NCBI GenBank assembly: GCA_017646005.1
Contig: JAGCNJ010000041.1
Location: 3,363 to 67,362, forward strand
Direction of reading: 5' to 3'
From: Clostridia bacterium
GTDB taxonomy: Bacteria; Bacillota; Clostridia; Oscillospirales; CAG-272
Length of the DNA stretch: 64,000 bases
A model generated the notes under the pieces. That model ran no database searches, was not told the origin of the DNA, and saw only the letters and a list, made by a program, of their open reading frames with translations. Positions 32,952 through 58,653 of the stretch are shown one piece after another. Made by a program: the position numbers and the translations under genes. Each line of letters opens with the position of its first letter. Position 1 is the stretch's first letter.

Positions 32952-34526
32952 TTATCTTTCGTTTTCGTAGCGCATATGGTGATAGAATCTGTTTTCACCT
33001 ATACAACCGCCATCGATAAGCATCTTAAGTGTTTCATCGTCATATCTGTAAAGCTTGAAGCCACCCTTGGCGTTTTCATAATCCTCACCGAGCTTTGAAA
33101 ATTCCGAATTGTACGGCTTGATTATTACGTTGTTTCTCCAATTAAAGCCGAGTCCCTGCTTTACACTTGTAGGTACTGCAAGATGCACGAAAAGTCTTAT
33201 GTACCACATAAAGTTGTTTTCGATATACGCATCCTCGTACATTGCCATAGTCTCACCGGCACCATAGAACATATTGTAATTAGCCTTCTGATGCACGTAT
33301 CCGCCAAAGCCATAGCCGGCATAACGGCAAAGATTATCGTAAAGGCGTATGTTTGTGAGTATTGCGTATGAGGTGTCTGTCTTTTCCCACGTGGTAAGCC
33401 ATACCTCCATCGGGCTGTCGCAACGCTCAATAGCATTTGCATATATCATGATATCGCGTTCGATAACAGTTTCGGGCTGATTCTGGTATTCGTTATCTGC
33501 CGTCTTAAGATGTCCCTGACACTGAATAGTAGGACCGCAATCGAATGCCTGATAGATGTAGTTGTTGTAGATCTGATAATTATCACAGCCACCGAAAATT
33601 TCGATAGAATTACCGAATCTTGTCGGCCAGTAGTTACGGATAAACTGTATCGAGCCGCCGATCCATCCCACCTCGCAGTTGCGCACAACAAGATCCTTTG
33701 CCGTGCCTGCGCCCATACCGTGCGACGCACCGTAACGGATGCAGAGGTTATCAAGAGTGATACCCGACTTACCGCTGATGACGTTGCCCTTCATACAAAG
33801 CTCTATAGAATCGAATATCTCACCGGGGTTACCGTAAAGCGAGCAGATGAAAAGCTCACTTGTATGATGGTTGAAGTAATATTCAAGGTTATATCTTAAA
33901 TCGTTGGCATCGGCAAATTTATCCTCGCCGCGCACCCAGAATTCCTTGCCGTTTGAGGTAAGTCCGTTATAGCCTCTGTGTATGCAAATATCCTTTTGCT
34001 CGTACTTCATTATACGCGCGCCAAAGTATTCACCGTGGTTAAATACGATATTACCTACGTCATTTGCAACTCTCATGTTACCGTTTTCGTCCATAGGCTC
34101 GTTTGCCGCAATAAAGCCTGTGTACTTATATATGTACGGATGTTCACCCCACTGCTTCCAGTCAGAGGGCTTCGATGCCTCGATGGAGCCGCAGATCATC
34201 GGCTTTGCGCCAAATCCGTATGCGGAATAGGTAACGTAGGGCTTTGACAGAATGCGCTCATGCCAAACGTCGCCACGCTTCATAAGAACTACGTCACCGG
34301 GGTTCAAAAGTCCGTCCGCGTTGATTTTTGCAAAGCTTGCAAAGGGCTTTTCTTCGGAGAGACCGTCGTTATTATCATCACCATCGTTGGCAATATAATA
34401 AATCTTTCCGCCCTCACCGAGAGTCCATTCGCTCTTGGTTGCAAGTATCTTATTCTTTCTTGCCTCAAATTCAGCATCAAGCACCTTTATCATTTCGCCT
34501 GAAGCAGGTTTTATTATCTGTTCCAT
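32952..34526 (-). CDS. beta-helix core paralog without signal peptide (predicted cytoplasmic)
   Basis: MEQIIKPASGEMIKVLDAEFEARKNKILATKSEWTLGEGGKIYYIANDGDDNNDGLSEEKPF, GDVVLMKRGDVW, VTYSAYGFGAKPMICGS, VRNCEVGWIGGS and YIYQAFDCGPTIQ. No hydrophobic N-terminus. Confidence 0.8.
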   Translation of the reverse strand: MEQIIKPASGEMIKVLDAEFEARKNKILATKSEWTLGEGGKIYYIANDGDDNNDGLSEEKPFASFAKINADGLLNPGDVVLMKRGDVWHERILSKPYVTYSAYGFGAKPMICGSIEASKPSDWKQWGEHPYIYKYTGFIAANEPMDENGNMRVANDVGNIVFNHGEYFGARIMKYEQKDICIHRGYNGLTSNGKEFWVRGEDKFADANDLRYNLEYYFNHHTSELFICSLYGNPGEIFDSIELCMKGNVISGKSGITLDNLCIRYGASHGMGAGTAKDLVVRNCEVGWIGGSIQFIRNYWPTRFGNSIEIFGGCDNYQIYNNYIYQAFDCGPTIQCQGHLKTADNEYQNQPETVIERDIMIYANAIERCDSPMEVWLTTWEKTDTSYAILTNIRLYDNLCRYAGYGFGGYVHQKANYNMFYGAGETMAMYEDAYIENNFMWYIRLFVHLAVPTSVKQGLGFNWRNNVIIKPYNSEFSKLGEDYENAKGGFKLYRYDDETLKMLIDGGCIGENRFYHHMRYENER

Positions 34527-34573
34527 AATTTTCCCTTTCCTTATGTCAGATTATATTTTACCGCTGTGCGGCA

Positions 34574-36154
34574 TCAGATACAGTTAAATCTCTCGTCCTC
34601 GGAGAACATATAATGGTAGAAGTTGTTTTCTCCGAAGGCACCTGTTTCGTACATTTTATCTATTATCTCATTAGTATAAGGATATGTGACCGAAGGGTCA
34701 AGTGAACGCTCAAGATCTGCTCCCATACGCGAAAATTCGGATGCGTAGGGCTTGATTATCGTATTCTTTCTCCAGTTATAGCCAAGTCCGTTACGGGTGT
34801 TTACCGGAACTGCAAGTGCTATCAAAACACGGGCGTGCCACATAAAATTATTTTCAACAAACGCGTCCTTATACGTTGCTTCGGTGTGACCTCCGCCGTA
34901 GAACATATTGAACATCGTTTTATAATGTACGTAGCCGCCGAAGCCGTAGCCTGCATATCTGCAGAAGTTGTCAGACATTACAATATCCTCAAGTATAGCA
35001 TATGTCTCTTCGTTCTGCTCTGTCTGAGTGGTTATCCATACCTCCATCGGACTGTTGCAACGCTCAATAGCATTACCGCAAACTCTTATATGGAGATTAT
35101 GCTTTCTTTTCTGATCTTCCTTTTGAGTTGTAAGATCTCCCTGCCACTGCACGGTAGGTCCGCAATCAAACGCTTGATATATGTAGTTATTAACGATCGT
35201 GTAATTCTTCGCAGTTCCGAAAATTTCAATTGAATTTCCGTATCTTGTAATATGCGTGGGGCTGATATGCTGTACAGCACCGCCTATCCAGCCGACCTCG
35301 CAGTTACGAACGGTAAGGTCAATACAGTTGCCGCCTCCGACACCGTGCTGTGCGCCGTAAAGGATCGCAAGATTATCAAGGGTCGCACCGTTTGCAATTT
35401 GCACGACGTTTCCCTTTTTTGCAAGGTCTATTCTTTCGTAGACCTCGCCGGGATTACCGTATACGCTCACAAGATAAAGCTCACCGTTTAAGATATCGTA
35501 ATAATATTCAAGGTCGTGGGAAAGATCCTGCGGTCCCGTAAATTTCGTTTGCGGCTTATACCACACCTCTTTACCGTTTGACACCATATTGCCTCTGCCC
35601 ACAAGTCTTGCGTAGCCAGGCTTTACCGGATCCTCGTATACTCTGAGTGCGTAGGCTTTGCCATCGTCAAAAATGATATTACCTATATCAAAATTTGGTC
35701 TTCCGTGTCCGTTTTCGTCAAGAGACGTGCATTTGTCAAGCGGATGCGCGTATTTATATATACAACGCTTATCGTTCCACAATACCCAGTCTTTTGGATT
35801 TGACGCATCTACCGAGCCGCAGATCTTGGGCTTATCGCCCTCACCGTATGCTGAATAGGTAACATACCTCTTGGAAATCAGACTTTCATGCCATCTGCCT
35901 CCCCGCTCGAAAAGCACGACGTCACCCTCGTTGAGAAGCCCGTCAGCGTTTATAAGCGCGAGTGTACGGAAAGCATTTTCCGGGCTTTTTCCGTCGTTGT
36001 TATCGTCGCCATTTTCGCTTACGTAGTAGATTGTACCGTTTTCACCGAGAGTCCACTCGCTTTTAGTTGCTCGGATCCTGTTTTTACGCGCTTCGAATTC
36101 GGCGTCGAGTGCCTGAATCATCTCCTGCGACGCCGCTTTGATATGCTCTGTCAA
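34574..36154 (-). CDS. beta-helix core paralog without signal peptide (predicted cytoplasmic)
   Basis: Close paralog of 32952-34526 (EMIQALDAEFEARKNRIRATKSEWTLGENGTIYYVSENGDDNNDGKSPE). I prefer TTG 36154 (giving MTEHIKAAS, which aligns to MEQIIKPAS, with GGGGG 9 nt upstream). The track ATG at 36169 has no SD and sits inside an operator-like palindrome. Confidence 0.75.
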   Translation of the reverse strand: MTEHIKAASQEMIQALDAEFEARKNRIRATKSEWTLGENGTIYYVSENGDDNNDGKSPENAFRTLALINADGLLNEGDVVLFERGGRWHESLISKRYVTYSAYGEGDKPKICGSVDASNPKDWVLWNDKRCIYKYAHPLDKCTSLDENGHGRPNFDIGNIIFDDGKAYALRVYEDPVKPGYARLVGRGNMVSNGKEVWYKPQTKFTGPQDLSHDLEYYYDILNGELYLVSVYGNPGEVYERIDLAKKGNVVQIANGATLDNLAILYGAQHGVGGGNCIDLTVRNCEVGWIGGAVQHISPTHITRYGNSIEIFGTAKNYTIVNNYIYQAFDCGPTVQWQGDLTTQKEDQKRKHNLHIRVCGNAIERCNSPMEVWITTQTEQNEETYAILEDIVMSDNFCRYAGYGFGGYVHYKTMFNMFYGGGHTEATYKDAFVENNFMWHARVLIALAVPVNTRNGLGYNWRKNTIIKPYASEFSRMGADLERSLDPSVTYPYTNEIIDKMYETGAFGENNFYHYMFSEDERFNCI

Positions 36155-36168
36155 AAAAATCGCCCCCA

Positions 36169-36216
36169 TATACTGTATATTAACTAAATTATACAGTATA
36201 ATAGGGACGATTTCAA
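36169..36216 (-). promoter_or_regulatory. promoter of the cytoplasmic beta-helix gene pair, overlapped by an 11-bp-arm inverted repeat
   Basis: The minus strand reads TTGAAA (36216-36211), 17-nt spacer, TATAAT (36193-36188). Inverted repeat TATACTGTATA (36169-36179) and TATACAGTATA (36190-36200), 10-nt spacer, spanning the -10 box to about +20. Confidence 0.55.
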
Positions 36217-40191: not shown

Positions 40192-40220
40192 AGTATACCA
40201 AAACAGATCATATTTTGCAA
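40192..40220 (-). promoter_or_regulatory. sigma-A-type promoter of the GHL10-amidase gene
   Basis: The minus strand reads TTGCAA, 17-nt spacer, TGgTATACT. Confidence 0.55.
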
Positions 40221-40271
40221 GTACAATTTCTTACAAAAAAGTAAATATTTCCCTATTGTCTACCAAACAAC

Positions 40272-40305
40272 GAGAAAAAGCATACCGCTCACAACGGTAT
40301 GCTTT
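40272..40305 (-). terminator. terminator after the small-ORF pair
   Basis: The minus strand reads AAAGCATACCG-TTGTGAG-CGGTATGCTTT followed by TTCTCG. Confidence 0.65.
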
Positions 40306-40323
40306 ATACTCTATTCAGTAAAA

Positions 40324-40482
40324 TTAAATGTTTGGCCCCATTTCATCCTCCCACAGCACGGGCGGATTTCCTCCGTCCACACCGGGGCGATAGTGTTCCT
40401 CATCCGACGCAGAAGCAGTGATTATATCAACAGCCTCAAAGCCGAACAACTCCACGGAAGGAAGTAAATATTCCTTTTTCAT
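40324..40482 (-). CDS. small acidic ORF (52 aa), not in ORF track
   Basis: Manual translation: MKKEYLLPSVELFGFEAVDIITASASDEEHYRPGVDGGNPPVLWEDEMGPNI. GGAG lies upstream. It is a paralog of the adjacent 41-aa ORF and is followed by a terminator. Confidence 0.5.
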   Translation of the reverse strand: MKKEYLLPSVELFGFEAVDIITASASDEEHYRPGVDGGNPPVLWEDEMGPNI

Positions 40483-40507
40483 TCACCAAACTCCAAACTA
40501 CAAAAGA

Positions 40508-40633
40508 TTACTTTTCGATCTTGCCTGTATCAATTCCGGGAAGATAAGAATCCTCATCGGACGAATAGGTGATAACGTCAACAACATCAAAAAGCATTAC
40601 CTCGACAGTGGGATCTTCATAAAACATCTTCAT
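40508..40633 (-). CDS. small acidic ORF (41 aa), not in ORF track
   Basis: Manual translation: MKMFYEDPTVEVMLFDVVDVITYSSDEDSYLPGIDTGKIEK. Strong RBS AAAGGAG 9 nt upstream. A near-consensus promoter lies ~55 nt upstream. Confidence 0.55.
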   Translation of the reverse strand: MKMFYEDPTVEVMLFDVVDVITYSSDEDSYLPGIDTGKIEK

Positions 40634-40693
40634 TACAAGTATCTCCTTTCGCAGTAATCAAACTAATTCACCGAATTTGCTTTTACACGGATT

Positions 40694-40722
40694 ATGATAT
40701 CATATTTTTTCTCGCTTGTCAA
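40694..40722 (-). promoter_or_regulatory. near-consensus promoter of the two small acidic ORFs
   Basis: The minus strand reads TTGACA (40722-40717), 17-nt spacer, TGaTATCAT (-10 at 40699-40694). Confidence 0.6.
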
Positions 40723-40822: not shown

Positions 40823-41623
40823 TCACTTACTTCGTGATCTTTTCACTACAGACGGAGGCTTACCGAAGGTCTTTTTATATTGCTTGAAAAATCCCGAATA
40901 ATCACAGAAACCGCATTCAAGAGCCGCCTCGGTAGGAGATTTGCCGTCAAGAATTTTTTCATTTGCAAGCGCAAGCCTTTTCTTTAGCACGTACTTATAA
41001 AGAGATATATTCATTTCACGTCTGAAAGCGTGAGAAATTCCCGACTCCGAAATATTAAGATCAGCCGACATCAGCTCAAGTGTTATCCGCTCGTGTATGT
41101 TCGCTTCTATCCATTCAATGCATCTCTGTACCGTATCCGACCTGCCTGAAAAATCCCCATCTAGCCTCTTAGCACGCCTTATTTCATATACAAGAAGCGC
41201 GCCTGCGGCAAAAGCAAGCGTTTCTGCCGTTTTATCATTTTCAAACTCACGGGCTGTATTTATAAGTCTTTCAAGAATAGGGCTTATCTGCTCGTTTATC
41301 TCGCATATGAAAGTTTTTTCAAAGCTGCCTGCGAAAAGCTTATCAAGCTCGGATTCACTATCAAAATGTATCACCAGCCTGTGATATTTTTCAACATCCC
41401 TCGTGACATTAAGCTGATGATAACACTGCTTAGGTATGACCAAGAGCGTTTTCGGTTTAAGTTTGAGATGAAGATTATCAGAAACAAAATCAGCCTCTTC
41501 TCCTATGAAATATATTATCTCATTGTACGGATGAAACTCCCGTCCCACAACGTCGCTTGCGCCCTTTGCATATTTGACGGATATCCGGTCGCTTTTTATA
41601 ATTTTCTTAAAGCCGTTGCTCAT
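40823..41623 (-). CDS. AraC-family transcriptional regulator (cupin-like N-domain plus C-terminal HTH)
   Basis: SESGISHAFRREMNISLYKYVLKKRLALANEKILDGKSPTEAALECGFCDYSGFFKQYKKTFGKPPS. I moved the start to ATG 41623 because the track TTG start at 41683 is the first base of a TTGACA -35 box. Confidence 0.85.
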   Translation of the reverse strand: MSNGFKKIIKSDRISVKYAKGASDVVGREFHPYNEIIYFIGEEADFVSDNLHLKLKPKTLLVIPKQCYHQLNVTRDVEKYHRLVIHFDSESELDKLFAGSFEKTFICEINEQISPILERLINTAREFENDKTAETLAFAAGALLVYEIRRAKRLDGDFSGRSDTVQRCIEWIEANIHERITLELMSADLNISESGISHAFRREMNISLYKYVLKKRLALANEKILDGKSPTEAALECGFCDYSGFFKQYKKTFGKPPSVVKRSRSK

Positions 41624-41654
41624 TATTTCCCTGCCGCCTACAAAAGTTTTTTTA

Positions 41655-41683
41655 ATTATACACGCCTTTTGCAGTAATGTCAA
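41655..41683 (-). promoter_or_regulatory. consensus promoter of the AraC-family gene
   Basis: The minus strand reads TTGACA (41683-41678), 17-nt spacer, TATAAT (41660-41655). Confidence 0.65.
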
Positions 41684-41874: not shown

Positions 41875-44511
41875 ATGAAAAGATTTTTTGCCATGCTGCT
41901 TGCCATTATCATGATCGCAACAGCCACACCGATGATGTCTCATGCGGATGAGGCTCCCGAAAAAACGCTCTTTTCGGCGTATGACATCTACTACGATGCA
42001 CAGATCGCGAACTTCACCACCGTTCAGCCCGTGCTTGAAATTTCGGACGGCGTACCCTACGCTTCCATGAAGGCTGAGCCCGGCACCTACGGCAACGGCG
42101 CACTTATGATGACGATAAAATCAAGCGCGCTCAAATTCAACGTGACCGAATATCCGTTCATTGCCGTCGGATACAAAACAGATGCGGTAACTCCCGGTGT
42201 CGATATCACTATGATGTATGACAACAATGAAACCTGGAGAAAAGAGGGCGGTTCAAGATACAAGATAACAAGCAACGGAAAGCTTGAAAAGCTTATATGC
42301 AATGCGCTCGATCTCAACGCCAAGGTGGAAATCAAGCCCGATTATCAGGGCATTGATATCAGACTGAAATTCTGGGGCGGTCATACGCAGGTGCTTTCAA
42401 CCAACCAGTATTTCGACGTTGCTTACATAGCCTTTTTCAAAACGCTTGATGAGGCAAATGCTTTCGTGTACAATCCCATAACCGAAGAAGAATACTTTGC
42501 AGAAAGTGACCTCAAAATAGTAAATAAGACCGTCACTGACGTTGATGAAAATACACTTCTCTCTTATCTTGCTCAGGCAGAAGCGCTTAAGTACGATATC
42601 ATCAACACCCCCAACACAGAATTCCCTCAGGCTAAAAAGACATATTACGTTTCGCCCGACGGCGATGATAACAACGACGGTCTTTCACCCGAAACAGCCT
42701 GGAAATCGCTTGAAAAGGTCGGAAGCGCAACCTACGGAAAGGATGACGTTGTACGCTTTAAGCGCGGCGGGATCTGGCGCGGTACTCTTAATCTTAAAAA
42801 CGGTGTGATCTACTCGGCTTACGGCGAGGGTCCCAAGCCCGAAATTTGGGGCTCTATCCCCGGCGAGGGCGCAGAAAATTGGGAGCTCACAGATGCTCCC
42901 AACGTATGGGCGTTCACAACGCCCCTTGAAAACGACAAGCACCCCGGAAACATCGTATTTAACGAGGGCGAAGCCTGGGGCATCCACGTTTACACCGACG
43001 GCAAGGGCAACAGACACGATCAGGGTACTGTTTTCAACGGAATCGAAACGGTTGAATGTCCCCCTACCCCTTACACAGGCTACAAGGATATCTTCCACAA
43101 CAATCTTGAATTCTGGTACGACGAAGAAGCAAAGACCGTGTATATGTACTGCGAATACGGCAACCCCGGAGAGTATTTTGATGACATCGAATTATCCCTT
43201 CGCCCCGATATGGTCAGCGGAGGAGGAAAATATATCATTTTCGATAACATCTGCCTTAAATATGGCGGCGGTCACGGAGTATCCGTTATGAACAGCGAAA
43301 GCGTCACGGTGCAGAATTGCGTGTTCGGCTGGCTCGGCGGAGGCGGACTCGGTAACGCCGTTCAGAACTGGGACAACTGCAAGGACTTCACGATCAATCA
43401 CAACTACGCTTATCAAATATACGACTGTGCGTGGACCACGCAGTCAAGCGTTACCTATGCCGACAGAACGATGGTGGACGTTGTTATGACAAACAACATC
43501 TCAGAGCGCTGCAACACGGGTGTTGAGATATGGCTGAGCGGTGACAACACCGACAAAAAGGGACTCCTTAAAAACTTTACCGTAGAAAACAACTTCACTC
43601 TCTACGGCGGGTGCGGCTGGAGCCATCAGCGCCGCCGCGATATCAAGGACGGCAACTTCGTTTTCGGAGGCACGGGAATTGACAGAGTCGTTTCGCGTGA
43701 AAATATGCATTTTGAAAACAACGTAAACATCCACGCAACACATATCGGACTTTATGCACGCTTCATAGGTCCTGCCGGCTTTATGTTCGACAACAACGTG
43801 TATATGATGCAGAGAGGCAAGTCGATGGCTTCTGCCGCATCAAATCTCAAGGACGGAAGCGGCTCGCTTATCAGATATCCCTACGATGAAAAGGGGATTT
43901 CCACGCTTGCCACGCTCGGCAACGACGTAAACTCCACCTTCTACTATCTCGCCGATGACTTTGAGCCGCACACAGACTCAAAGCTTCAGGACTTCACAGA
44001 CGTATACGGGCATTGGGGACTTGAAAATATCAGCTTTGCAGTAATGAAGGGACTCTTCTCGGGCACTACCGATACGACCTTCTCACCCAACGCGCCTATG
44101 ACGCGTGCAATGCTCGTAACCGTGCTTTCTCGCCTTGCAGGTGACGTTGATACCAATGCTGTATCGGGCTTCTCCGACGTAAAGGCTGACGCATGGTACA
44201 CATCTGCGGTAGCATGGGCAGAGGCTAAAGGCATCGTTGACAAGGGCGCTTCCTTCAGACCCGATGCCAACGCTACCCGTGAGGAAATGGCTGATATGCT
44301 CTACCGTTTCGCAAAAGCTTACGGTAAGGACACAAGCAAAAAAGCTGAACTTAAATTCACGGACGCTTCAAGCATCAAATGCAAGGACGCCGTCGCTTAT
44401 TGCGTAGGTGCCGGCATCATCGCAGGCTATAGCGACAACACCGTCAAGCCCGCAGGCGAGGCTACACGCACCGAGGTAGCTACGATGCTTAAGAGATTCA
44501 TCTTCGCTTGA
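41875..44511 (+). CDS. secreted beta-helix paralog with N-module and C-terminal SLH triad (no C modules)
   Basis: RBS GGAGG. Signal peptide MKRFFAMLLAIIMIATATPMMSHA. N-module ending YFDVAYIAFFKTLDEANAF. Cap motif TYYVSPDGDDNNDGLSPETAWKS. SLH triad at ~43984-44508 ends the protein. Confidence 0.88.
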   Translation: MKRFFAMLLAIIMIATATPMMSHADEAPEKTLFSAYDIYYDAQIANFTTVQPVLEISDGVPYASMKAEPGTYGNGALMMTIKSSALKFNVTEYPFIAVGYKTDAVTPGVDITMMYDNNETWRKEGGSRYKITSNGKLEKLICNALDLNAKVEIKPDYQGIDIRLKFWGGHTQVLSTNQYFDVAYIAFFKTLDEANAFVYNPITEEEYFAESDLKIVNKTVTDVDENTLLSYLAQAEALKYDIINTPNTEFPQAKKTYYVSPDGDDNNDGLSPETAWKSLEKVGSATYGKDDVVRFKRGGIWRGTLNLKNGVIYSAYGEGPKPEIWGSIPGEGAENWELTDAPNVWAFTTPLENDKHPGNIVFNEGEAWGIHVYTDGKGNRHDQGTVFNGIETVECPPTPYTGYKDIFHNNLEFWYDEEAKTVYMYCEYGNPGEYFDDIELSLRPDMVSGGGKYIIFDNICLKYGGGHGVSVMNSESVTVQNCVFGWLGGGGLGNAVQNWDNCKDFTINHNYAYQIYDCAWTTQSSVTYADRTMVDVVMTNNISERCNTGVEIWLSGDNTDKKGLLKNFTVENNFTLYGGCGWSHQRRRDIKDGNFVFGGTGIDRVVSRENMHFENNVNIHATHIGLYARFIGPAGFMFDNNVYMMQRGKSMASAASNLKDGSGSLIRYPYDEKGISTLATLGNDVNSTFYYLADDFEPHTDSKLQDFTDVYGHWGLENISFAVMKGLFSGTTDTTFSPNAPMTRAMLVTVLSRLAGDVDTNAVSGFSDVKADAWYTSAVAWAEAKGIVDKGASFRPDANATREEMADMLYRFAKAYGKDTSKKAELKFTDASSIKCKDAVAYCVGAGIIAGYSDNTVKPAGEATRTEVATMLKRFIFA

Positions 44512-44575
44512 GATTTGTGCTTTACGGTTTAAAGCGGGCTTCTTCAAAAAAATGCTATAATTATTAACAACTTAA

Positions 44576-44623
44576 CAGATGCTGCCAATGCGTTAAGCAG
44601 GCAGCGTCTGTTTTGTTTATTTT
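44576..44623 (+). terminator. rho-independent terminator after 41875-44511
   Basis: CAGATGCTGCC / GGCAGCGTCTG stem followed by TTTTGTTTATTTT. Confidence 0.7.
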
Positions 44624-44660
44624 GACTACTATTTCAATTATAATATGTGCAAAATACGAA

Positions 44661-44689
44661 TTGACCGTAAAGAACGCATATGATATAAT
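44661..44689 (+). promoter_or_regulatory. distal promoter upstream of 44872-49752
   Basis: TTGACC (44661-44666), 17-nt spacer, TGaTATAAT (-10 at 44684-44689). Confidence 0.55.
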
Positions 44690-44799
44690 ATTGTAGCTAT
44701 TATGGTAATTTATGCTTTATCGTGCCCGTCCGTTCCGATCCGGTCAGTTCGGGTGCTTCAATAGTGTACTATTTGCAATAATAAAGTCACTTTTTCGCA

Positions 44800-44829
44800 T
44801 TGTTTGTCCACACGGCAGTATGATATAAT
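44800..44829 (+). promoter_or_regulatory. proximal promoter upstream of 44872-49752
   Basis: TTGTTT (44800-44805), 18-nt spacer, TGaTATAAT (-10 at 44824-44829). It has the same extended -10 as the distal promoter. Confidence 0.5.
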
Positions 44830-44871
44830 GCAGTTACCATAGTTCAAGTAAAACGTGAAAGGAAACCACCA

Positions 44872-47800
44872 ATGAAAAAAGTCTTTTCCCTACTCCTCGT
44901 GATATGTATGCTCGTGTCGGCTCTGCCCTACACAGGCGCGGCTATCACATACGACAAATTTGACACGGTCTTTACAGCATTCACTCCGCTCAACTTCGAG
45001 CACAGTGTAACCGCGAAGATCCAAAAGTCAACCGAAAAAAACGGCTCTGTTCCGTATTTTCATTACGTTGCCGAACCCGGCGAATACACCAACACCGATC
45101 TCATAATCAAGCTGAAGGCAAAGAATATCAAGCCCGATGAATATCCGATCATAAAGGTGGAATACAAAACCAACTCGCCCAGCAGCATACTTGACGTATC
45201 AATGACATCTCCCAAGGGTGAAAACTGGCTTTCAAAGCATCCTGCACTCAATTCGGACGATCAATGGAATTCTGTTACCTTCAACTACAATGACATCACC
45301 GCAGCAGGAACACAGTATATCCCTAACAAAGGCGAAAGCAACATAACCTTCTGCTTCAAGCCCTTCGGATCACAGAAGGTCACTCTTGATAAGCAGTACT
45401 ATTTCGACCTCCATTATGTCGGATTTTTCAAAACCGAAGAAGAAGCCGCAAGCTTCAAGGGCTTCAACATGAATACGGCAAGCTATAAATACCCCGTAGT
45501 CACTCCCGAAGCATTGTTCAACAACTTTGCAGGCGGAAATGAAGTCAATTCCATAAACTACTTCAAGGTCGACGACACAAGCTCTTTTGTAAGATTCACC
45601 GTTGAACCCGGCACATACGGTAACAATCTTCTGATATCATTTACGCACTCTGCATTCCCTATTGTAGAGCGTCCGTATATAAAGCTTGCGTACAAAACCG
45701 ACTCCAAGGCGTCAAAGCTCGACATTTCAATGACCAGTGACAAGGGTGAAAACTGGCCGGCAGGTTCAAAAAAGCCGTCACTTGTCGGCACAGGCGAGCT
45801 TACCGAGCTTATATTTACAATAAACGATTTCACCGCGGCAAACGGTGTTGAGGCACCCGATGAAAACAGCTACGTAAACATCAGACTCAAGCCCTGGGGC
45901 GCACAGTCGGTAACTATTACCGAGCACTCTTATTTCGACCTCTATTACGTTGCCTTCTTTGAAACCGAAGAAGAAGCACGTTCATTCTCGTATCCCGGCG
46001 ATGACAACTATACGCACGATTATTCACAGGAGCTCTCGGCTGTAGATTATTCTTTCGCTTCCAAGGCAACTGTACGTGACTATATTGACGACGCAGATGC
46101 GCGCATCAACGAGGTTATCCACACAACCAACACGGTCCCCTATATGCAGCATCTTACTCTCACCGGACTTACAGGTGCTTACGGCTCCTCTGACGAGAAG
46201 GACAACAAAACCTTCTATACCATGACGATTCCGAAGGGCAAGCATGAGGCGGGCGCACTTAAATTTGCATTCACCCAGAACGACGTTGCTCTCTCATCCT
46301 ACCCGTTCATCAAGCTTTCTTATAAGAGCGAGGTTTCTTCCACCGCACTTGCAACTCTCAAATCAAGCAACGGAAGCGCATCGCTTGAATTTCCCATTTC
46401 AACATCAACAAACACCTATACCCAGAAGCTCTTCGATCTTTCAGACTTCGCAAACTACCAGTCGATCCTTCAGGGAAGCAACGTAACCTTTGAGGTGTAT
46501 CCTCTCGGAAACAACGCCAAGACGCTTATCAGCTCAAGAAGCCTTACACTTGAATATATAGGTCTGTTCAAAACGAGATCTGCGGCAAGCAACTTCGTCT
46601 ATGCCGGTGAACACGGCGCGAATATGACCTCCAATACGATCATATATACAGCCAAGCTCCTTGATCCTGCAAGAATCCCTTCAGGCAGAAAGGTATTCGT
46701 TGCTCAGAACGGATCAAGCAGCAGCTCAAACGACGGTTCAAATATAAACAACCCGATAAGCTTTGCAAGATTCAGATCCATTAACAGTTCACTTCCCCAA
46801 GGAACTGTAGTATTCTTCAAGCGTGGCGACAGCTTCCGTTATGACGGTTTGGTCTACGCACACGGATACGTTACATATACCTCCTACGGTGTCGGTGACA
46901 AGCCTAAGTTCATAGCTTCCATCGATGGTACGGGCGCAAGCAAGTGGACAAAGACTGAGCACAAGGACGTTTGGGTGTTCAACCAGTCTCTTAAAACACT
47001 TAACAACGACGTCGGACACATCCGTATCAACGACGGCGAGCTCTGGGGAATCAAGGTTTCCGCAAAGAACTATACCGATAACCGCGTAAACAACGGTGCA
47101 GTATTCAACGGACGTACCCATATCGAGGGCATGAACGGCACCCTCGAAAACGGTAAGGGACTTGTTAATGACCTTGAATTCTGGCATGATTATGACAATG
47201 GCAAGCTTTATCTTAACTGCGCCGACGGAAACCCCGGCGAGGTGTTTGACAGCTTTGAGATCGCCAATAGGGGTAACGCGATCAGCGGTTATTCCAATAC
47301 GACTGTGGATAACATCTACATCACAGGATGCGGAAGCCACGGTATCGGTATGGGTACCGTAAATAACGTAACCTTATCAAATCTTCACCTTGAGTGGATC
47401 GGCGGCTCCATACAGACTCTCGCGCTCAACGCAACTCCGACGGAAGGCGGCACTCCTACACGCTTCGGTAATGCTCTTGAAGCATACGGCGGCGCTGTAA
47501 ACGTTACAATGAAAAACAGCTTCTGTGACCAGGTATACGACTGCTGCTACACCGTCCAGAATCAGGGCGCTGTAAACTTCGAAAACGTATTTATGTATGA
47601 CAACGTCGCACGCTACAGTAACTCCGGTCTTGAGGTATGGCAGTCGGGCGGTACTACCACCAATATGCTGCTCTATGACAACTATACCCTCTTCGGCGGC
47701 TACGGCTGGAGCCATCAAAGACCTAACAAGGACGGTAACTTCTTCTACGGCGGTCTCGGCATAAGAACCACCGTCTTCACACAGAACTCTGTTCACAACA

Positions 47801-49752
47801 ATGTAAACATTCTAGCTTCCGCTGTAGCACTTCAGGTGAGCGAAATCGCATCAACAAGATACAACTTCAACTCAAACGTCTATATCATGGGTGAAAACAA
47901 GATCTATTCAAGAGCTCCCGTTAATCCCGAAGGTTCCGGCGCAACATCATCACACACCTATAATTACACTTCCATTTCCGCATCGCAGAGCAAGGGAACA
48001 GACCTCAACTCAAAATTCCTCTTTATCCCCACGGATCAGTTCAATATCGGCGATGATCCCTACGAGATATTCAAAGCAGGCAATAACCCGATATACGATA
48101 TCGAACCGAACGTTGACGAGATCGTTCTCGGTGTCGGAGATAAGTTCAACATATCATCCAAGGTTTATCCCGAAAGCGCAGAAAACAAGGAATTATATTA
48201 TTCAAGCGATCATCCCCTTGTCGCATCTGTAAACCAGGAAGGACAGATCACTGCTAACTGCAGCGGTTCTACCACAATCAAGCTTATATCCGTTGAATCG
48301 GGCGTTACCGCCAAAATAAAGGTTTCGGTAATCAACGTTGCTGACCGTCCGAGCATTTGGTCAAAGGATACGGCAGGCAAGGACTCTTATACGGCAAACG
48401 TCCTCTTTGTAGGCGACGATTTCTTTAGCGGTGAGCATAATCTTCCCTCTCTGTTCAATGAAAGCTTTTACGTTAACACTGAAACTATTGCGCAAAACGG
48501 TATGAGCTTCACATCCAATACTTATTCGGTAGCAGATGCGTTGGCAGATACCAAATCCAATTCCGCAGTGACCTTCATTTCAGCAGGATATAACGACTAT
48601 CTTGCAGGTGCTTCGCTTGCAGAATTTGAAGCGAGCTTAAAGGAAACATTCTCCAAGGCTCGCTCAACTCAATCCAAATCTACAATAGTTTACGTAACAC
48701 CTCTTAATCTTACCAAGGCTAAAAACTCACAGGGGCTTACCATCGGAGATTACGTAGAAAGCGCCAAAAGGATAGCTGCTACACAGCTTATCCGTGTTGC
48801 AGACATCTACACCAACCCCAAAAAGCCGTTTACCACCTTTGACAATAACGGGGACCCTGCATACATTTATTCAACTCTTATAAGCACGGACCTTTCATTT
48901 ACCGAAAAGGGTGTAGACAGATACCTTACCAACATAATCGCAGAAATAAGAGAAAACGCGCTTATATACGTTTACGGTATAGTTGAATACGCTCATACCT
49001 TTACAGCTGATATGCTTATAGGTGACGTTATTCATACAACCCATTTCCTTGCACCTGAGCCGGTTGCCGAAGCCGGAAACTCATACATCAGAATGAAGCC
49101 GGCGTACGTATTAACGGGTGCAGACGGCACGTCGTTTGATATCAAGTTTGTTAATTCAAGCCTGCCGATCAAGGAATATCCGATAATCAGAATCGATTAC
49201 CGTTCAAATATTTCAAGTGCAAATGCGAAGCTCGACCTTAATATGGGTGTCATATACAGTTCAGGCAACGCAAGGCTTTGGGGTCCCAATCATAGCTACA
49301 ATAAAAACGGTGAGCTTTCAACGCTCATCATTGACGCAACAAAGGCATTCACGGGCGGTGACAACATAAGCTCTCTTGCACAGGCAAATGACGATTCTCC
49401 CGTAACCTACTTAAGATTCAAGCCTTATGCAGGCGGTCAGACAAATACCGACGGCGATTACTTCGACATCATGTCCATTTCATTCTTCAAAACGGTTGAG
49501 GATGCCGAAAAGGGCGTTGCAGACGAGGAAGAGGAAATCCTCGTTCTCCGCGGCGATATCGACGGAAACGGCGTTATAGAAACTACAGACAGTGTCGCTC
49601 TTTCAAGATACTTTGCCAAGTGGACAGGCTACACAGATATCGATGAAGCAACTGCCGATATCGACGGAAACGGTCTTGTTGAAACAACAGACAGCGTTTC
49701 GTTCTCAAGATACTTCGCAAAGTGGACAGGTTACACAGACCTGTTCGACTGA
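44872..49752 (+). CDS. 1626-aa secreted beta-helix paralog with three N-modules, Big_2, degenerate SGNH-like domain, one C module and a C-terminal dockerin (no SLH)
   Basis: Signal peptide MKKVFSLLLVICMLVSALPYTGAA. Three modules end YFDLHYVGFFKTEEEAASF, YFDLYYVAFFETEEEARSF and LTLEYIGLFKTRSAASNF. Beta-helix motifs CGSHGIGMG, YDCCYTVQNQG and FGGYGWSHQRPNK. Dockerin repeats GDIDGNGVIETTDSVALSRYFAKW and ADIDGNGLVETTDSVSFSRYFAKW. Confidence 0.88.
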   Translation: MKKVFSLLLVICMLVSALPYTGAAITYDKFDTVFTAFTPLNFEHSVTAKIQKSTEKNGSVPYFHYVAEPGEYTNTDLIIKLKAKNIKPDEYPIIKVEYKTNSPSSILDVSMTSPKGENWLSKHPALNSDDQWNSVTFNYNDITAAGTQYIPNKGESNITFCFKPFGSQKVTLDKQYYFDLHYVGFFKTEEEAASFKGFNMNTASYKYPVVTPEALFNNFAGGNEVNSINYFKVDDTSSFVRFTVEPGTYGNNLLISFTHSAFPIVERPYIKLAYKTDSKASKLDISMTSDKGENWPAGSKKPSLVGTGELTELIFTINDFTAANGVEAPDENSYVNIRLKPWGAQSVTITEHSYFDLYYVAFFETEEEARSFSYPGDDNYTHDYSQELSAVDYSFASKATVRDYIDDADARINEVIHTTNTVPYMQHLTLTGLTGAYGSSDEKDNKTFYTMTIPKGKHEAGALKFAFTQNDVALSSYPFIKLSYKSEVSSTALATLKSSNGSASLEFPISTSTNTYTQKLFDLSDFANYQSILQGSNVTFEVYPLGNNAKTLISSRSLTLEYIGLFKTRSAASNFVYAGEHGANMTSNTIIYTAKLLDPARIPSGRKVFVAQNGSSSSSNDGSNINNPISFARFRSINSSLPQGTVVFFKRGDSFRYDGLVYAHGYVTYTSYGVGDKPKFIASIDGTGASKWTKTEHKDVWVFNQSLKTLNNDVGHIRINDGELWGIKVSAKNYTDNRVNNGAVFNGRTHIEGMNGTLENGKGLVNDLEFWHDYDNGKLYLNCADGNPGEVFDSFEIANRGNAISGYSNTTVDNIYITGCGSHGIGMGTVNNVTLSNLHLEWIGGSIQTLALNATPTEGGTPTRFGNALEAYGGAVNVTMKNSFCDQVYDCCYTVQNQGAVNFENVFMYDNVARYSNSGLEVWQSGGTTTNMLLYDNYTLFGGYGWSHQRPNKDGNFFYGGLGIRTTVFTQNSVHNNVNILASAVALQVSEIASTRYNFNSNVYIMGENKIYSRAPVNPEGSGATSSHTYNYTSISASQSKGTDLNSKFLFIPTDQFNIGDDPYEIFKAGNNPIYDIEPNVDEIVLGVGDKFNISSKVYPESAENKELYYSSDHPLVASVNQEGQITANCSGSTTIKLISVESGVTAKIKVSVINVADRPSIWSKDTAGKDSYTANVLFVGDDFFSGEHNLPSLFNESFYVNTETIAQNGMSFTSNTYSVADALADTKSNSAVTFISAGYNDYLAGASLAEFEASLKETFSKARSTQSKSTIVYVTPLNLTKAKNSQGLTIGDYVESAKRIAATQLIRVADIYTNPKKPFTTFDNNGDPAYIYSTLISTDLSFTEKGVDRYLTNIIAEIRENALIYVYGIVEYAHTFTADMLIGDVIHTTHFLAPEPVAEAGNSYIRMKPAYVLTGADGTSFDIKFVNSSLPIKEYPIIRIDYRSNISSANAKLDLNMGVIYSSGNARLWGPNHSYNKNGELSTLIIDATKAFTGGDNISSLAQANDDSPVTYLRFKPYAGGQTNTDGDYFDIMSISFFKTVEDAEKGVADEEEEILVLRGDIDGNGVIETTDSVALSRYFAKWTGYTDIDEATADIDGNGLVETTDSVSFSRYFAKWTGYTDLFD
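44944..46600 (+). repeat. three tandem N-type family modules at the N-terminus of the dockerin paralog
   Basis: Three successive units each contain [YE]P[IYF]IK[VL].YK[TS], GENW (units 1 and 2), KP[FW]G and Y[FL].L.Y[VI]G[FL]F[KE]T...A..F. Confidence 0.75.
48395..48960 (+). other. SGNH-like domain with substituted catalytic Ser and His
   Basis: Block I VLFVGDDFFSG (GDS replaced by GDD; codon 48418-48420 is GAT), block III ISAGYNDY, block V-equivalent STDLSFTEKG (Asp-x-x-Phe; codon 48898-48900 is TTT). Confidence 0.5.
49543..49749 (+). other. dockerin (two Ca-binding repeat segments)
   Basis: GDIDGNGVIETTDSVALSRYFAKWTGY and ADIDGNGLVETTDSVSFSRYFAKWTGY form a D-x-D-x-N-G EF-hand-like duplicated segment at the extreme C-terminus. 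Confidence 0.8.
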
Positions 49753-53988: not shown

Positions 53989-54624
53989 CTAATTCTTTTC
54001 AACTATCTTGATATTGACAGGATCTATTCCTGCCTGCTCGTATACGATCTCCTTTATCTGCGAAAGCTCGTTTTCCATAAGTCCGTCCGATTTTACGATA
54101 ATGTTCGCATTCGATCCTGTAACTACCGCGATGCATTCTTCAAAGCCCTTGCTCTTTATAAGCGTTTCAATATTTGCCTCTGTTTCGATTTCGCCCGCGA
54201 TACGTGCGATGTCTGTAAGAGCCGATTCCTTTGCTCCCTCAAGCGCGGCTTCGTTATTGACTACAGTCTTGAGCACCTCTATCGCCTCGTCGCGTGCCTG
54301 ATCGCGGCTGAGAATTGACGAAGCAAAATACGTGTCGGCAACGCTTAAGCTTTCGTCCTCACCTACTGCGATAACAGGCTCAAGCATCGGTGTGTCACCG
54401 CCTTCTCCGGCAAGCGCATAGTTAAGTATCACCGCAAGTCCGATAAGTAAAACCGAGCATACAACTACAACCGTACGCGTGCCGACAGATACGACCGCGC
54501 TTTTGATCTTGCCCGCCGCACGCTTGTATAACGGGGCATCCCTGACCTCTTCGATTGGCAGATTCTCAGAAGCGGGTCTTACGCTTTCAAGCTTCTCATC
54601 AAATTTTTCGTTAAAGTTTTCCAT
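53989..54624 (-). CDS. spoIIIAH: stage III sporulation protein AH
   Basis: Last gene of the spoIIIA cluster. N-terminal TM segment. C-terminal ECIAVVTGSNANIIVKSDGLMENELSQIKEIVYEQAGIDPVNIKIV is typical of SpoIIIAH. Confidence 0.7.
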   Translation of the reverse strand: MENFNEKFDEKLESVRPASENLPIEEVRDAPLYKRAAGKIKSAVVSVGTRTVVVVCSVLLIGLAVILNYALAGEGGDTPMLEPVIAVGEDESLSVADTYFASSILSRDQARDEAIEVLKTVVNNEAALEGAKESALTDIARIAGEIETEANIETLIKSKGFEECIAVVTGSNANIIVKSDGLMENELSQIKEIVYEQAGIDPVNIKIVEKN

Positions 54625-54683
54625 ACCTTTTCTCCTTATATTAAATTACACTTAATTATATTCGTGTCCGACCGTTTATATGA

Positions 54684-55025
54684 CTATTTTGCCCCAACGT
54701 ATATCCGCGAGCTGGGGATGCCATACAGAGTTGAGAGCATTTCTGTAAGCTCAAGCTTCAATTTTGCGTTTTCTTCCTTATTCAGTATGAGCGCAATTCC
54801 GACAAGTTCGCCGGCAACGTCGGTGTTGACAGAGACGTACACTCCATCCCCTGCAAGCTCAATGCACAGTCTTTCGATTTTTTCTTCGAGCCTTGTCTCT
54901 CCCGCTCCGCTTTGAAGCGGCACAGCCTCAAATGTGCACAACAGCACGCCGAGTACAAGAAGTGCCGATATAAGCCCGATATTTTTAACACGCTTTAAGC
55001 GCAAAAGCATTTCGGATATTTTCAT
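54684..55025 (-). CDS. spoIIIAG: stage III sporulation protein AG, unusually short (113 aa)
   Basis: Its position lies between the AF and AH genes. N-terminal TM segment. LEEKIERLCIELAGDGVYVSVN and GELVGIALILNKEENAKLKLELTEMLSTLYGIPSSRIYV resemble the two conserved ends of SpoIIIAG. Confidence 0.55.
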   Translation of the reverse strand: MKISEMLLRLKRVKNIGLISALLVLGVLLCTFEAVPLQSGAGETRLEEKIERLCIELAGDGVYVSVNTDVAGELVGIALILNKEENAKLKLELTEMLSTLYGIPSSRIYVGAK

Positions 55026-55040
55026 TCCATCCCCCCTTTT

Positions 55041-55580
55041 TTATTCAACGCAGACCTTGATTCCAAGCTCGTTTTCAAGATAGCTTTTTATGTCGCTTGC
55101 AATATACCCCTCAACATCCGACACCCACAGACTTGTAATTTCGATATTTTCCATATTGCTTATATCAAGCGATACCCCTATATCCGCACCTCTGCCGAAG
55201 CGCAGACACAGCTTCTTATTTATTTCTTCTGTCATAGAGCGCACCACCTCAAGCAAGTACATATCACAAGGTACGGGCTTATCCGAGATCCGATTTCCAC
55301 CATCATCAGCCTTGTAAGCTACCGAGTTTTTAATGTACACGTATTTGTAATTAAGCACCGAGGCCTCATTAAGCTTAATTTTATCAAGCGCATCCGTTAG
55401 AGACGCAGTATTTTCCCCCCACACACTCAACATAGGAGTTATAATTGATATCACCAGCACAAGCGCAAGCAGATAACGCAGATATTTGGCAAGCGCACCA
55501 TTGCTTTTCGGCAAAATAAAAGCGCAGATATATTCTACAACCGCCGCGCCTATAACGGTCGATACAAGCTCTTGTTTCAT
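55041..55580 (-). CDS. spoIIIAF: stage III sporulation protein AF
   Basis: Assigned from its position after spoIIIAE and its two N-terminal TM segments. I moved the start to ATG 55580 (RBS AAAGGA) because the track extension overlaps spoIIIAE by 136 nt. Confidence 0.6.
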   Translation of the reverse strand: MKQELVSTVIGAAVVEYICAFILPKSNGALAKYLRYLLALVLVISIITPMLSVWGENTASLTDALDKIKLNEASVLNYKYVYIKNSVAYKADDGGNRISDKPVPCDMYLLEVVRSMTEEINKKLCLRFGRGADIGVSLDISNMENIEITSLWVSDVEGYIASDIKSYLENELGIKVCVE

Positions 55581-55594
55581 TTTTATCCTTTCAT

Positions 55595-56692
55595 CTATCC
55601 GTAAGCAGACGAGCATTTGAGCAACAGCGTGAGAAAATACACGAACATAAAAGCGCAAAGCGCAACAAGCGCGATAAGCACATTTATAAGCGATGACGCC
55701 TGCTTTAGCACCTGCGTTTCCCTTTCGCATCCGAGTATGTCTGAAAGCGACGCACCAATGACTAAGTTGATCCGCACTATCATAAGGCTTATAAACACCG
55801 GAAGTGTTATAAGTATCACTACCGCGATACCGACACCGCCAATACTCGCGCGTATATAACCCACACTTCCTGCTACCATACGTACTGCCTCGCTAACCGC
55901 CGATCCGACTATGGGTATAAAGCTTGATGCAGCAAATCGCACGGCTCTTGCGCCGAGCGTATCCGCGGCTCCGGCAAGCGTATGCTGTAGGCTCATTATA
56001 ACCGATATGGAAGTTACGGTAAAGCTTATGCCGAGCATCATAACTCCGCGCAAAAAGCCTATCAGCGTACCTATTCTTATTTTAGGCGAAAGTGAGGAGG
56101 CTATAGTCAACGCCGCAACAAGCGAAAGCAACGGATACAACAGATACGCACAGATATTTTCCACGACCGCAATACTAAGCATAAGTCCGCTTGTACTGAC
56201 CGTTGCCGCACTTATGTTTCCGCCTGCTGCGTAGGCTATTGATATGGCAGGCGTTACAGCCGTTGCAAAGGATGCAAGTGTCCCAAGATATTCTGACACC
56301 GCTTCAAAAAGTGTTGCTACTACCGTAAACACATAGACACATACGCAAAGTGAGCTTACAGATGAAAATGCTCCTTCAAGCTCTCCCTTCGTACTCTGCG
56401 ATAAGAGATGAAACAATGACGATACTATAAGCAATGCCGCAAGTGTATACAGATCTGCCGTATACTTTCCTGCTACAGATCTGAATGATTTTTTTATACT
56501 TTCAAAAAAATATGAAAACGAAAGCTTGTCTGCTATATTTGCATTGTCATCAAATATTCCGTCGGGCAAGGCTTGCTTTACCTCATCAGGTATATATTCA
56601 CCAATGTCAACCGATTCAAGCGCAGCTGCATTAAGAGAAAGCAAGGACAAAAATACGAGTATTATCGCTATAACAGATACGGCGCGCATCAC
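55595..56692 (-). CDS. spoIIIAE: stage III sporulation protein AE (polytopic membrane protein)
   Basis: 365 aa with a signal-like N-terminus and multiple TM segments. Its position between the AD and AF genes fits. Confidence 0.8.
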   Translation of the reverse strand: MMRAVSVIAIILVFLSLLSLNAAALESVDIGEYIPDEVKQALPDGIFDDNANIADKLSFSYFFESIKKSFRSVAGKYTADLYTLAALLIVSSLFHLLSQSTKGELEGAFSSVSSLCVCVYVFTVVATLFEAVSEYLGTLASFATAVTPAISIAYAAGGNISAATVSTSGLMLSIAVVENICAYLLYPLLSLVAALTIASSLSPKIRIGTLIGFLRGVMMLGISFTVTSISVIMSLQHTLAGAADTLGARAVRFAASSFIPIVGSAVSEAVRMVAGSVGYIRASIGGVGIAVVILITLPVFISLMIVRINLVIGASLSDILGCERETQVLKQASSLINVLIALVALCAFMFVYFLTLLLKCSSAYG

Positions 56693-57069: not shown

Positions 57070-57263
57070 AACAATCCGAACACCGAGCCTATAAGCGCAA
57101 AAAGCTCCTTCATTTTTCCAACCAGCATAAGTAACACCACGAGGATTCCGGCAAGCGTTACAAGCGTTGATTGCTCGTCCCTGCCGTATTTACCGAGTAT
57201 CTGTGTTGCCACGCTCACAATTATGCCTATCCCGGCAATCTTAAGTATAAAGCTAACGTCCAT
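57066..57263 (-). CDS. spoIIIAC: stage III sporulation protein AC
   Basis: 65 aa: MDVSFILKIAGIGIIVSVATQILGKYGRDEQSTLVTLAGILVVLLMLVGKMKELF, characteristic of SpoIIIAC. Confidence 0.9.
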   Translation of the reverse strand: MDVSFILKIAGIGIIVSVATQILGKYGRDEQSTLVTLAGILVVLLMLVGKMKELFALIGSVFGLL

Positions 57264-57295
57264 TCTTACTCCAAGCCTTGATCATTCTTAATTAT

Positions 57296-58632: not shown

Positions 58633-58653
58633 AGTCACATTCTCCTTTGTTGA

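Follow-up and report, generated by a model that had tools for sequence, protein, structure and literature searches.

The window analysed here, a stretch of 64,000 nucleotides from a Clostridia bacterium, carries on its minus strand two tandem, very short open reading frames between the gene of an AraC-family regulator and the gene of a GHL10-amidase. We asked whether these frames are genes, to which family their products belong, and with which enzymes and partners the products would work. The original prediction had described them as paralogous acidic micro-ORFs of 41 and 52 aa in a transcription unit of their own, absent from the ORF track. It had placed them in no known family, and had suggested, among other roles, that of small regulatory or anti-regulator proteins.

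Both ORFs, here named pepA and pepB, were present with translations exactly as quoted in that prediction (Table 1). Their products were paralogous, with 20/39 residues identical (51%, E = 2e-11 in BLASTP), and both were acidic and free of Cys, with a net charge of about -7 for pepA (41 aa) and about -8 for pepB (52 aa). Neither product has the hydrophobic core of a signal peptide, because the longest uncharged run within residues 1-24 is only 5-6 residues and is broken by Asp and Glu. The other predicted elements were also found in place: a near-consensus promoter with TG, matching 11 of the 12 consensus positions; the RBS AAAGGAG (40649..40643); a hairpin terminator of 13 pairs, with a folding energy of -20.1 kcal/mol (z = -4.8 against shuffles); and, as flanking genes, those of the HTH_18 and the GHL10+Amidase_3 proteins. 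One detail of the prediction differed: two NCBI MAGs list homologues as 'hypothetical proteins' (MBQ7822246.1 and MBO7148753.1), so that the ORFs are not missing from all annotations. The second promoter-like site in Table 1 would drive the GHL10-amidase gene separately from the peptide unit, and similar sites were present in the related loci L001 (8983..9011) and L007 (501..529). An Rfam search of the peptide region gave a chance-level match only and no family, Pfam and NCBIfam scans of pepA and pepB gave nothing meaningful, and no match was found among plasmid records.

Table 1. Features of the peptide locus and its neighbours, in positions of the window.
Feature	Position	Strand	Evidence
pepA, 41 aa	40508..40633	minus	ORF and translation; family HMM E = 5.8e-16
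pepA leader-like residues 1-24	40562..40633	minus	ORF and translation
pepA acidic tail, 17 aa, SDEDSYLPGIDTGKIEK	40511..40561	minus	ORF and translation
pepB, 52 aa	40324..40482	minus	ORF and translation; family HMM E = 7.1e-15
pepB leader-like residues 1-24	40411..40482	minus	ORF and translation
pepB acidic tail, 28 aa, ASDEEHYRPGVDGGNPPVLWEDEMGPNI	40327..40410	minus	ORF and translation
Sigma-70-type promoter, TTGACA-17-TATCAT, extended -10 TG	40694..40722	minus	11/12 consensus positions
RBS AAAGGAG of pepA, 9 nt 5' of ATG	40643..40649	minus	Direct sequence reading
Intrinsic terminator, 13-bp hairpin (40305..40277) and T-rich tail	40267..40305	minus	Sequence and folding
Second promoter-like site, TTGCAA-17-TATACT (+TG)	40192..40220	minus	Sequence reading
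GHL10 + Amidase_3 membrane-anchored protein, 1028 aa	37074..40160	minus	Pfam GHL10 3e-62, Amidase_3 3e-35
AraC-family regulator gene, upstream neighbour	40823..41683	minus	HTH_18 4e-16

Against the orthologous locus L001, pepA showed pS 0.36 and pN 0.061 (pN/pS 0.17), and pepB showed pS 0.42 and pN 0.045 (pN/pS 0.11, range 0.11-0.13). For the leader, that is the first 24 codons, pS was 0.2-0.68 and pN 0-0.13 in more distant orthologues. The reading frames were unbroken in all related loci examined. This pattern of substitution indicated that pepA and pepB are genuine coding genes under purifying selection. The frames are short and belong to no database family, as chance ORFs or a decaying non-coding duplication would, but low pN/pS at pS of about 0.4, intact frames, hundreds of relatives (below), conserved expression signals and the lack of an Rfam family at the region contradict such an origin, and we regard its probability as negligible.

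The signals around the genes were conserved together with the frames. The promoter was identical 5' of the peptide gene in L001, L007 and L011, the RBS was invariant in L001 and L009, and RBS, promoter and terminator were all kept in L001, L007 and L011. The stem of the terminator in L001 carried paired substitutions of CC..GG to TT..AA (GCATACCG/CGGTATGC to GCATATTG/CAATATGC) with pairing preserved, and hairpins equivalent to that of the window were found in L007 and L011. Because promoter, RBS and terminator are conserved and the stem changes are compensatory, the independent transcription unit is well supported by comparison.

The failure to place the peptides in a family did not hold. A word-indexed protein search with both peptides returned only 7 close clusters, and a narrow-pattern genome scan only 4 loci. 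Searching 1.84 billion representatives exhaustively with HMMER gave 209 at E <= 1e-3, nearly all of 32-65 aa. When a degenerate DNA pattern for the leader was used to scan viral contigs and metagenomes, 118 matches were obtained in metagenomes, all of which (118/118) were family peptides by HMM, and 0 in viral contigs. The HMMER search and the metagenome scan together gave about 360 distinct relatives. Three long HMM matches (P0018, P0019 and P0025) were rejected as relatives since they were translated CRISPR arrays. No Pfam or NCBIfam model exists for the family, 10 typical members matched no NCBIfam model, and no family member carried a name in the sources checked. By profile match and residue pattern, pepA and pepB are members of this large unnamed Clostridial peptide family.

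Family members share a 24-residue N-terminus, MKKxYExPxhEhxxFxxxDVIT[AT]S, followed by a hypervariable, acidic and almost Cys-free tail. D19 and S24 were invariant, M1, P8 and T22 were conserved in more than 90%, and the motif ended at residue 24 in 112/134 peptides. Both window peptides fit the family pattern M-K-K-x-[YF]-x-x-P-x-h-E-h-x-x-[FL]-x3-D-[VI]-[IV]-T-x-S and retain Y5, P8, E11, F15, D19, T22 and S24. The residues that the original prediction had noted as common to the two paralogues, MK..Y..P.VE...F..VD.IT.S, turned out to be the high-information positions of the whole family. In 134 peptides the tails contained 25% D+E (13.7% D and 11.2% E) and 13.5% G, with a mean charge of -4.3; their median length was 17 aa, and Cys occurred in 8/134 peptides. 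Over the family the median tail length was 17-20 aa, and Gly, Ser or Ala was common at tail position +1. The window tails, of 17 and 28 aa, net negative and Cys-free, are of this type. A universal tail motif was sought across the family and only weak subfamily motifs were enriched (ETP, [DE][LT]P[IFLV] and PG[IVL]). At one locus, L127, the same leader was found before Cys-rich tails, beside an rSAM/SPASM enzyme. AlphaFold2 predicted residues 1-20 with pLDDT 82-87 but without secondary structure, and the tail with pLDDT 52-68; no sequence relative of the peptides was found in the PDB.

The family members look like precursors of exported, enzyme-modified peptides. Their N-terminus behaves as a leader would: in the window lineage it is better conserved than the adjacent amidase (below), and throughout the family it is tied to one set of genes. 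For 14/39 distinct peptides with enough flanking sequence (about 1/3), at least two genes of one cassette were found within 8 kb. The cassette consists of an HPr-kinase-fold kinase, a PqqD protein, a signal-peptidase-I-like protease, an ABC exporter and an NTP_transf_5 nucleotidyltransferase. In L013, L019 and L023/L024 the order was, by precomputed Pfam annotation, large secreted protein, peptide(s), PF27840 kinase-like protein, PqqD, 140-165-aa protein, ABC exporter (not always present) and NTP_transf_5, and the kinase gene usually started 4-180 nt after the peptide. The link also held in reverse, since both loci picked via the kinase alone (L145 and L148, 2/2) had family peptides beside the cassette. 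The peptides are thus linked to the cassette at the level of the family. About 2/3 of the members with enough flank had no adjacent cassette, and in the 64-kb window no cassette component was found even at E <= 10; pepA and pepB are orphan members of this large, undescribed family of precursor-like peptides. Leader residues were equally conserved in cassette-linked and unlinked members, a comparison limited by the retrieval pattern, which fixed most of the compared positions.

The cassette proteins were characterized one by one. The PqqD protein matched its Pfam model at E = 5e-17, and its nearest NCBIfam models were lasso PqqD chaperones. The kinase has the Walker A motif SGTGKST, is assigned to PF27840 in precomputed annotation and matched ScmC/HprK sequences weakly. 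No sequence relative of it was present in the PDB, and its predicted structure (pLDDT 88, pTM 0.85) matched structures of HPr kinase/phosphatase (HPrK/P) and PEP carboxykinase (PEPCK). The 140-165-aa protein matched signal peptidase I TIGR02228 at 3.7e-8, SipW at 3.5e-5 and Peptidase_S24 at 9e-5, has the boxes GxSMxPL, YVLHR and GDN, and lacks an N-terminal membrane segment. From these weak profile matches and motifs, it is probably a signal-peptidase-I-like peptidase. In L040, L061 and L082 it formed the N-terminal part of a single 685-aa ORF that continues into the ABC exporter (ABC_membrane 162-431, ABC_tran 490-638). No asparagine-synthase or transglutaminase-core3 gene was found in any annotated cassette, and neither the peptide family nor a cassette lacking a cyclase was described in the searched literature, of incomplete coverage.

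The cassettes resemble the clusters of Firmicutes lasso peptides such as paeninodin and pseudomycoidin, whose operons unite a stand-alone PqqD (B1) with an HPr-kinase homologue, a nucleotidyltransferase and an ABC exporter. There, a phosphate placed on the precursor by the HPr-kinase homologue is extended with a hexose by the nucleotidyltransferase (PMC8498205). The leaders are also similar: those of Firmicutes lasso peptides, such as MKKDWTIPTLEVLDINMTMA|G (PMC7533575), are short, with M-K-x-[WY]-x-x-P-x-h-E-h and a Thr near the cut site. That pepA and pepB are lasso-peptide precursors is nevertheless contradicted on several points, and we find it barely credible. Neither a cyclase of the asparagine-synthase type nor a B2 protease of the transglutaminase type was present in the window or in the annotated cassette loci, and the protease slot is taken by the signal-peptidase-I-like domain. 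The family leader is 4-5 residues longer than a Firmicutes lasso leader and ends in T-x-S. Set against the lasso pattern of Y-x-x-P-x-L and a penultimate Thr, the window leaders give a mixed picture, with Y5-x-x-P8-x-V10 in place and the Thr at -3 as counted from Ser24. The tails lack a ring-forming Asp/Glu. Tail position 1 of the window peptides is S or A, as tested for a lasso core, but positions 7-9 read LPG and YRP without Asp or Glu, and over the whole family D/E at positions 7-9 was no commoner than tail composition predicts. A C-terminal Ser, the acceptor of the characterised lasso kinase, occurred in only 8/254 tails.

The fused peptidase brings the cassette near to the PCAT exporters of double-glycine systems, in which a fused peptidase domain couples cleavage of the leader to export. 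As in these systems, the peptide has leader and core without a Sec signal, and the ABC exporter has a cytoplasmic peptidase domain fused N-terminally. The fused domain is, however, S26/S24-like, with motifs of the Ser-His type, instead of a C39 cysteine peptidase. The leader ends in T-[AT]-S, and not in GG, GA or GS, and is accompanied by an RRE protein and two tailoring enzymes. If our reading of the whole system is right, peptidase-coupled ABC exporters would come in two kinds, this one serine-type and the PCATs cysteine-type (C39).

Two further systems share single components with the cassette. SipW-type signal peptidases of Bacillus (TasA/TapA) are likewise small ER/archaeal-type signal peptidase I homologues beside a presumed dedicated substrate, but the cassette domain, which lacks a membrane anchor and would sit in the cytoplasm, either is fused to an ABC exporter or lies next to one, and its substrates have no hydrophobic signal sequence. 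The kinase recalls the SynChlorMet ScmC and HprK-related families (TIGR04249, TIGR04355, PF27840), in that it is assigned to PF27840 and weakly matches TIGR04249 and HPr kinase models. Its scores are far below the curated cut-offs (26.1 against 125 bits for TIGR04249, and 13 against 200), and, as far as they could be tested, the definitions of those families include no peptide family, peptidase or pairing with surface proteins. No gene of an ScmC-type kinase was found in the window.

From these comparisons, the peptides appear to work most like RRE-dependent leader-core precursors. Our best reading, to which we give an even chance, is that they are leader-core precursors related to lasso-type systems but without a cyclase or a lasso core. 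Family peptides would be substrates of the kinase/PqqD/S26-like peptidase/ABC exporter/NTP_transf_5 cassette. Residues 1-24 would be the leader, in which Y5-x-x-P8-x-h-E-h may dock as an extended strand onto the PqqD-type peptide-binding protein; the confidently predicted but unstructured leader in AlphaFold2 fits such a docking strand. Type I signal peptidases follow the rule of small residues at -3 and -1 of their substrates. T22-x-S24 fits this rule and could be the -3/-1 site of the signal-peptidase-I-type protease, with the cut after Ser24. If the kinase and nucleotidyltransferase act as their counterparts in Firmicutes lasso clusters do, which is our best guess, the tail would be phosphorylated and perhaps glycosylated, and lasso-cluster tailoring enzymes would work in the absence of a lasso; the acceptor known from those clusters, a C-terminal Ser, is, however, rare in the tails. 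The leader would be removed during export, and the peptidase-exporter fusion argues for cleavage coupled to export in a PCAT-like manner.

At the window locus, the products leaving the cell would then be two acidic peptides, one of 17 aa and one of 28 aa, and outside they would meet the secreted GHL10-amidase encoded next to them, on which they might act. Because the window is cassette-free, pepA and pepB would have to be matured in trans. Whether this full leader-core mechanism holds at the window locus is, in our judgement, evenly poised.

The proteins encoded beside family peptides suggest where the mature peptides might work. For 106/139 peptides with upstream sequence (76%), an ORF of 100 aa or more in the same direction ended no more than 120 nt upstream, with a modal gap of 12-24 nt. 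The partner proteins have signal peptides. They include S8 and C1 peptidases, and others have Flg_new, Big_2, Glug, LRR_5, NPCBM or cohesin domains. A shared C-terminal domain of the partners was considered, and some groups do have a helical Y..Y..AA..Y ending in common. By their C-termini, however, the partners formed 26 unrelated groups, and no Pfam domain was common to them. Some peptide tails resembled the C-terminal tail of the adjacent lipoprotein. The tight pairing of precursor genes with genes of secreted surface proteins or cell-wall hydrolases points to an extracellular partnership, suggesting that the mature peptide works with its partner protein outside the cell.

The window peptides break this family rule. 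They have their own strong promoter, their secreted partner, the GHL10-amidase, is encoded downstream, and none is encoded within 120 nt upstream: the co-directional gene on that side is that of the cytoplasmic AraC regulator, 190 nt away. Both copies, pepA and pepB, were found in the close relatives L001, L005 and L009, and a single pepA-type copy in the more distant L006, L007, L011 and L012. The GHL10-amidase gene lay directly downstream of the peptide gene(s) in L001, L006, L007, L011 and L012, and the adjacency was kept in 6/6 related loci. The constant neighbour of the peptides in this lineage is therefore the downstream amidase, unlike in the rest of the family. The amidases of the related loci were only 61-75% identical to the window enzyme. 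The first 24 peptide residues were about 85-92% identical across the lineage (22/24 against L006), so that the peptide N-terminus is better conserved than the adjacent amidase in the same loci. The tails within the lineage varied in length and sequence around a loose motif of an acidic run and [YF], often with x-P-G-[IV]-D, and some had LWEDE or N-[PL]-[WF]-E farther along.

Because the window is cassette-free and its lineage atypical, the main rival explanation does without the cassette. The peptides would be small acidic proteins tied to the GHL10-amidase, which they might for instance inhibit, chaperone or dock onto, and their N-terminus would be a binding strand and not a removable leader. 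The persistence of peptide-amidase adjacency down to 61% amidase identity, the loose motif of the amidase-clade tails (acidic-[YF]-x-P-G-[IV]-D) and the N-terminus predicted as extended, not folded, would all fit this explanation, as would the family-wide position close behind genes of secreted surface proteins and the tails that resemble a lipoprotein terminus. However, the partners are secreted or membrane-anchored with outward-facing domains, and the peptides lack a signal peptide. Some way out of the cell is thus required, and the family is linked to no other than the ABC exporter of the cassette. The 26 unrelated partner groups offer no common domain to receive one conserved strand, and the equal conservation of the leader with or without the cassette, at positions mostly fixed by the retrieval pattern, also counts against this explanation. 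We consider a cassette-free amidase partnership rather unlikely.

The neighbouring AraC gene invites another explanation, in which pepA and pepB are pheromone-type signalling pro-peptides under the adjacent regulator or feeding back on it. They are small and acidic, lie in a strongly promoted unit of their own next to a regulator gene, and an exported, processed peptide would be compatible with the cassette model too. The AraC adjacency was, however, confined to the closest relatives. In L001 the AraC gene is near the peptides, with an inverted gene between, and in L011 and L012 only a different, unannotated 150-aa ORF on the opposite strand was found upstream of the peptides, with no AraC gene; this comparison rests on L001, L011 and L012, since the contigs of L006 and L007 end just upstream of the peptides. 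In contrast to AgrD and RRNPP pro-peptides, pepA and pepB have neither Cys nor a signal peptide, and the annotated window genes include no AgrB- or RRNPP-type neighbour; no RRNPP, Agr or two-component receptor-type gene of the window adjoins the peptide genes. The promoter, of an ordinary near-consensus sigma-70 type, shows no obvious operator. Signalling through the AraC regulator is thus improbable, and the regulator or anti-regulator role offered in the original prediction found no support. Of that prediction, the paralogous acidic micro-ORFs in their own unit stood, and the search for homologues and neighbourhoods that it had proposed found frames conserved in related loci; its view on family placement did not stand.

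Extended to the whole family, the leader-core reading would amount to a RiPP-like system of gut and rumen Clostridia that is very widespread and had gone undescribed. Linear acidic peptides would have a leader read by PqqD, be tailored by the HPr-kinase-fold kinase and the nucleotidyltransferase, owe their release to a signal-peptidase-type domain that is joined to an ABC exporter, and act with the paired secreted protein. We propose this tentatively, at somewhat less than an even chance. Gut and rumen Firmicutes seem rich in this system: in the kinase family alone, clustering at 90% identity gives at least 7,996 clusters. If the proposal is true, hundreds of small genes now annotated as 'hypothetical', or missed, would be candidates for encoding the precursors of a new class of modified, exported peptides. 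The window would then present the case of an acidic peptide made beside a peptidoglycan amidase in a spore-former.

The tails also bear on the origin of the two copies. The pepB tail motif, Y-x-P-G-[IV]-D...LWEDE, was common to P0001, P0009, P0010 and P0013. In P0009, a pepA-type N-terminus was joined to a pepB-type tail, which suggests that pepA of the window may be a shortened copy.

When the two acidic peptides of the window (pepA and pepB, 40324-40633) were compared with the database entry P0009, the N-terminus of this entry was found to be of the pepA type and its tail (…YFPGIDDDILWEDQLSPNS) of the pepB type. This pairing suggests an ancestral long tail, of which the window's pepA lost the distal part after duplication.

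Other tail types also occur behind the leader of this family. At L127, an rSAM/SPASM enzyme gene is directly followed by two peptides with the family leader and Cys-rich tails, indicating that the leader type is common to two different maturation chemistries. A subfamily with long His/Gly/Pro-rich tails (for example ...HEHENHGHHYGWGDPQPGHGNDHGHGHNHGGH) was observed in L042, L051, L053, L113 and L135; these tails sometimes contain a Cys cluster, and the peptides look like metal-binding peptides. At four loci, a small lipoprotein gene lies between two peptide genes, and the C-terminal tail of the lipoprotein (DDGLNWSPLVPVE; IELPFIPVD) is similar to that of the adjoining peptide. Three database entries, P0018, P0019 and P0025, were rejected as relatives: their sequences come from the translation of CRISPR arrays, in which the repeats read CDLMNFCIFDVITYS, and their match to the peptide profile is due to chance.

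In L040, L082 and L061, one ORF, about 685 aa long, encodes an ABC exporter with an N-terminal signal-peptidase-I-like domain carrying the boxes GxSMxPL, YVLHR and GDN. The fusion protein looks like a serine-peptidase analogue of PCAT exporters, which have a C39 domain instead. A full set of peptide, PqqD, NTP_transf_5, kinase, peptidase and ABC genes was found in a Hadza gut metagenome (L145:1-16729), with serine recombinases, a relaxase and MobC in its flanks; this cassette appears to be carried by a mobile element.

Paralogous proteins with a common region of about 450 aa surround the peptide locus, in the window and in L001. Two of them (524 and 531 aa, 54% identical) are without signal peptides. 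The others do have a signal peptide: one protein of 878 aa carries three SLH domains, and one of 1626 aa has an end that is dockerin-like. Pfam gave nothing for these paralogues beyond a faint Beta_helix match. The presence of a spoIIIA operon indicates that the organism is an endospore former, which bears on the peptidoglycan amidase neighbouring the peptides. The N-terminal region of a 579-aa protein is of the camelysin/TasA type (Peptidase_M73), the class of protein on which SipW-type signal peptidases act in Bacillus.

Coordinates of the features in the window and related loci
Feature	Location	Strand	Content
Peptidase-ABC exporter fusion	L040:82-2142	-	signal-peptidase-I-like domain + ABC exporter
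Peptidase-ABC exporter fusion	L082:2090-4147	-	signal-peptidase-I-like domain + ABC exporter
Peptidase-ABC exporter fusion	L061:3-1457	-	signal-peptidase-I-like domain + ABC exporter
Cys-rich-tail peptides and rSAM/SPASM gene	L127:47-398; L127:385-1353	both -	
Small-lipoprotein loci	L035:3862-4490; L056:2705-3506; L057:10621-11199; L115:7863-8495		
~450-aa-region paralogues	window 32952-36169	-	
~450-aa-region paralogues	window 41875-49752	+	
~450-aa-region paralogues	L001:5823-8279		
spoIIIA operon	window 53989-58638	-	SpoIIIAA, AB, AE, AH
579-aa protein	window 58912-60651	+	Peptidase_M73 region
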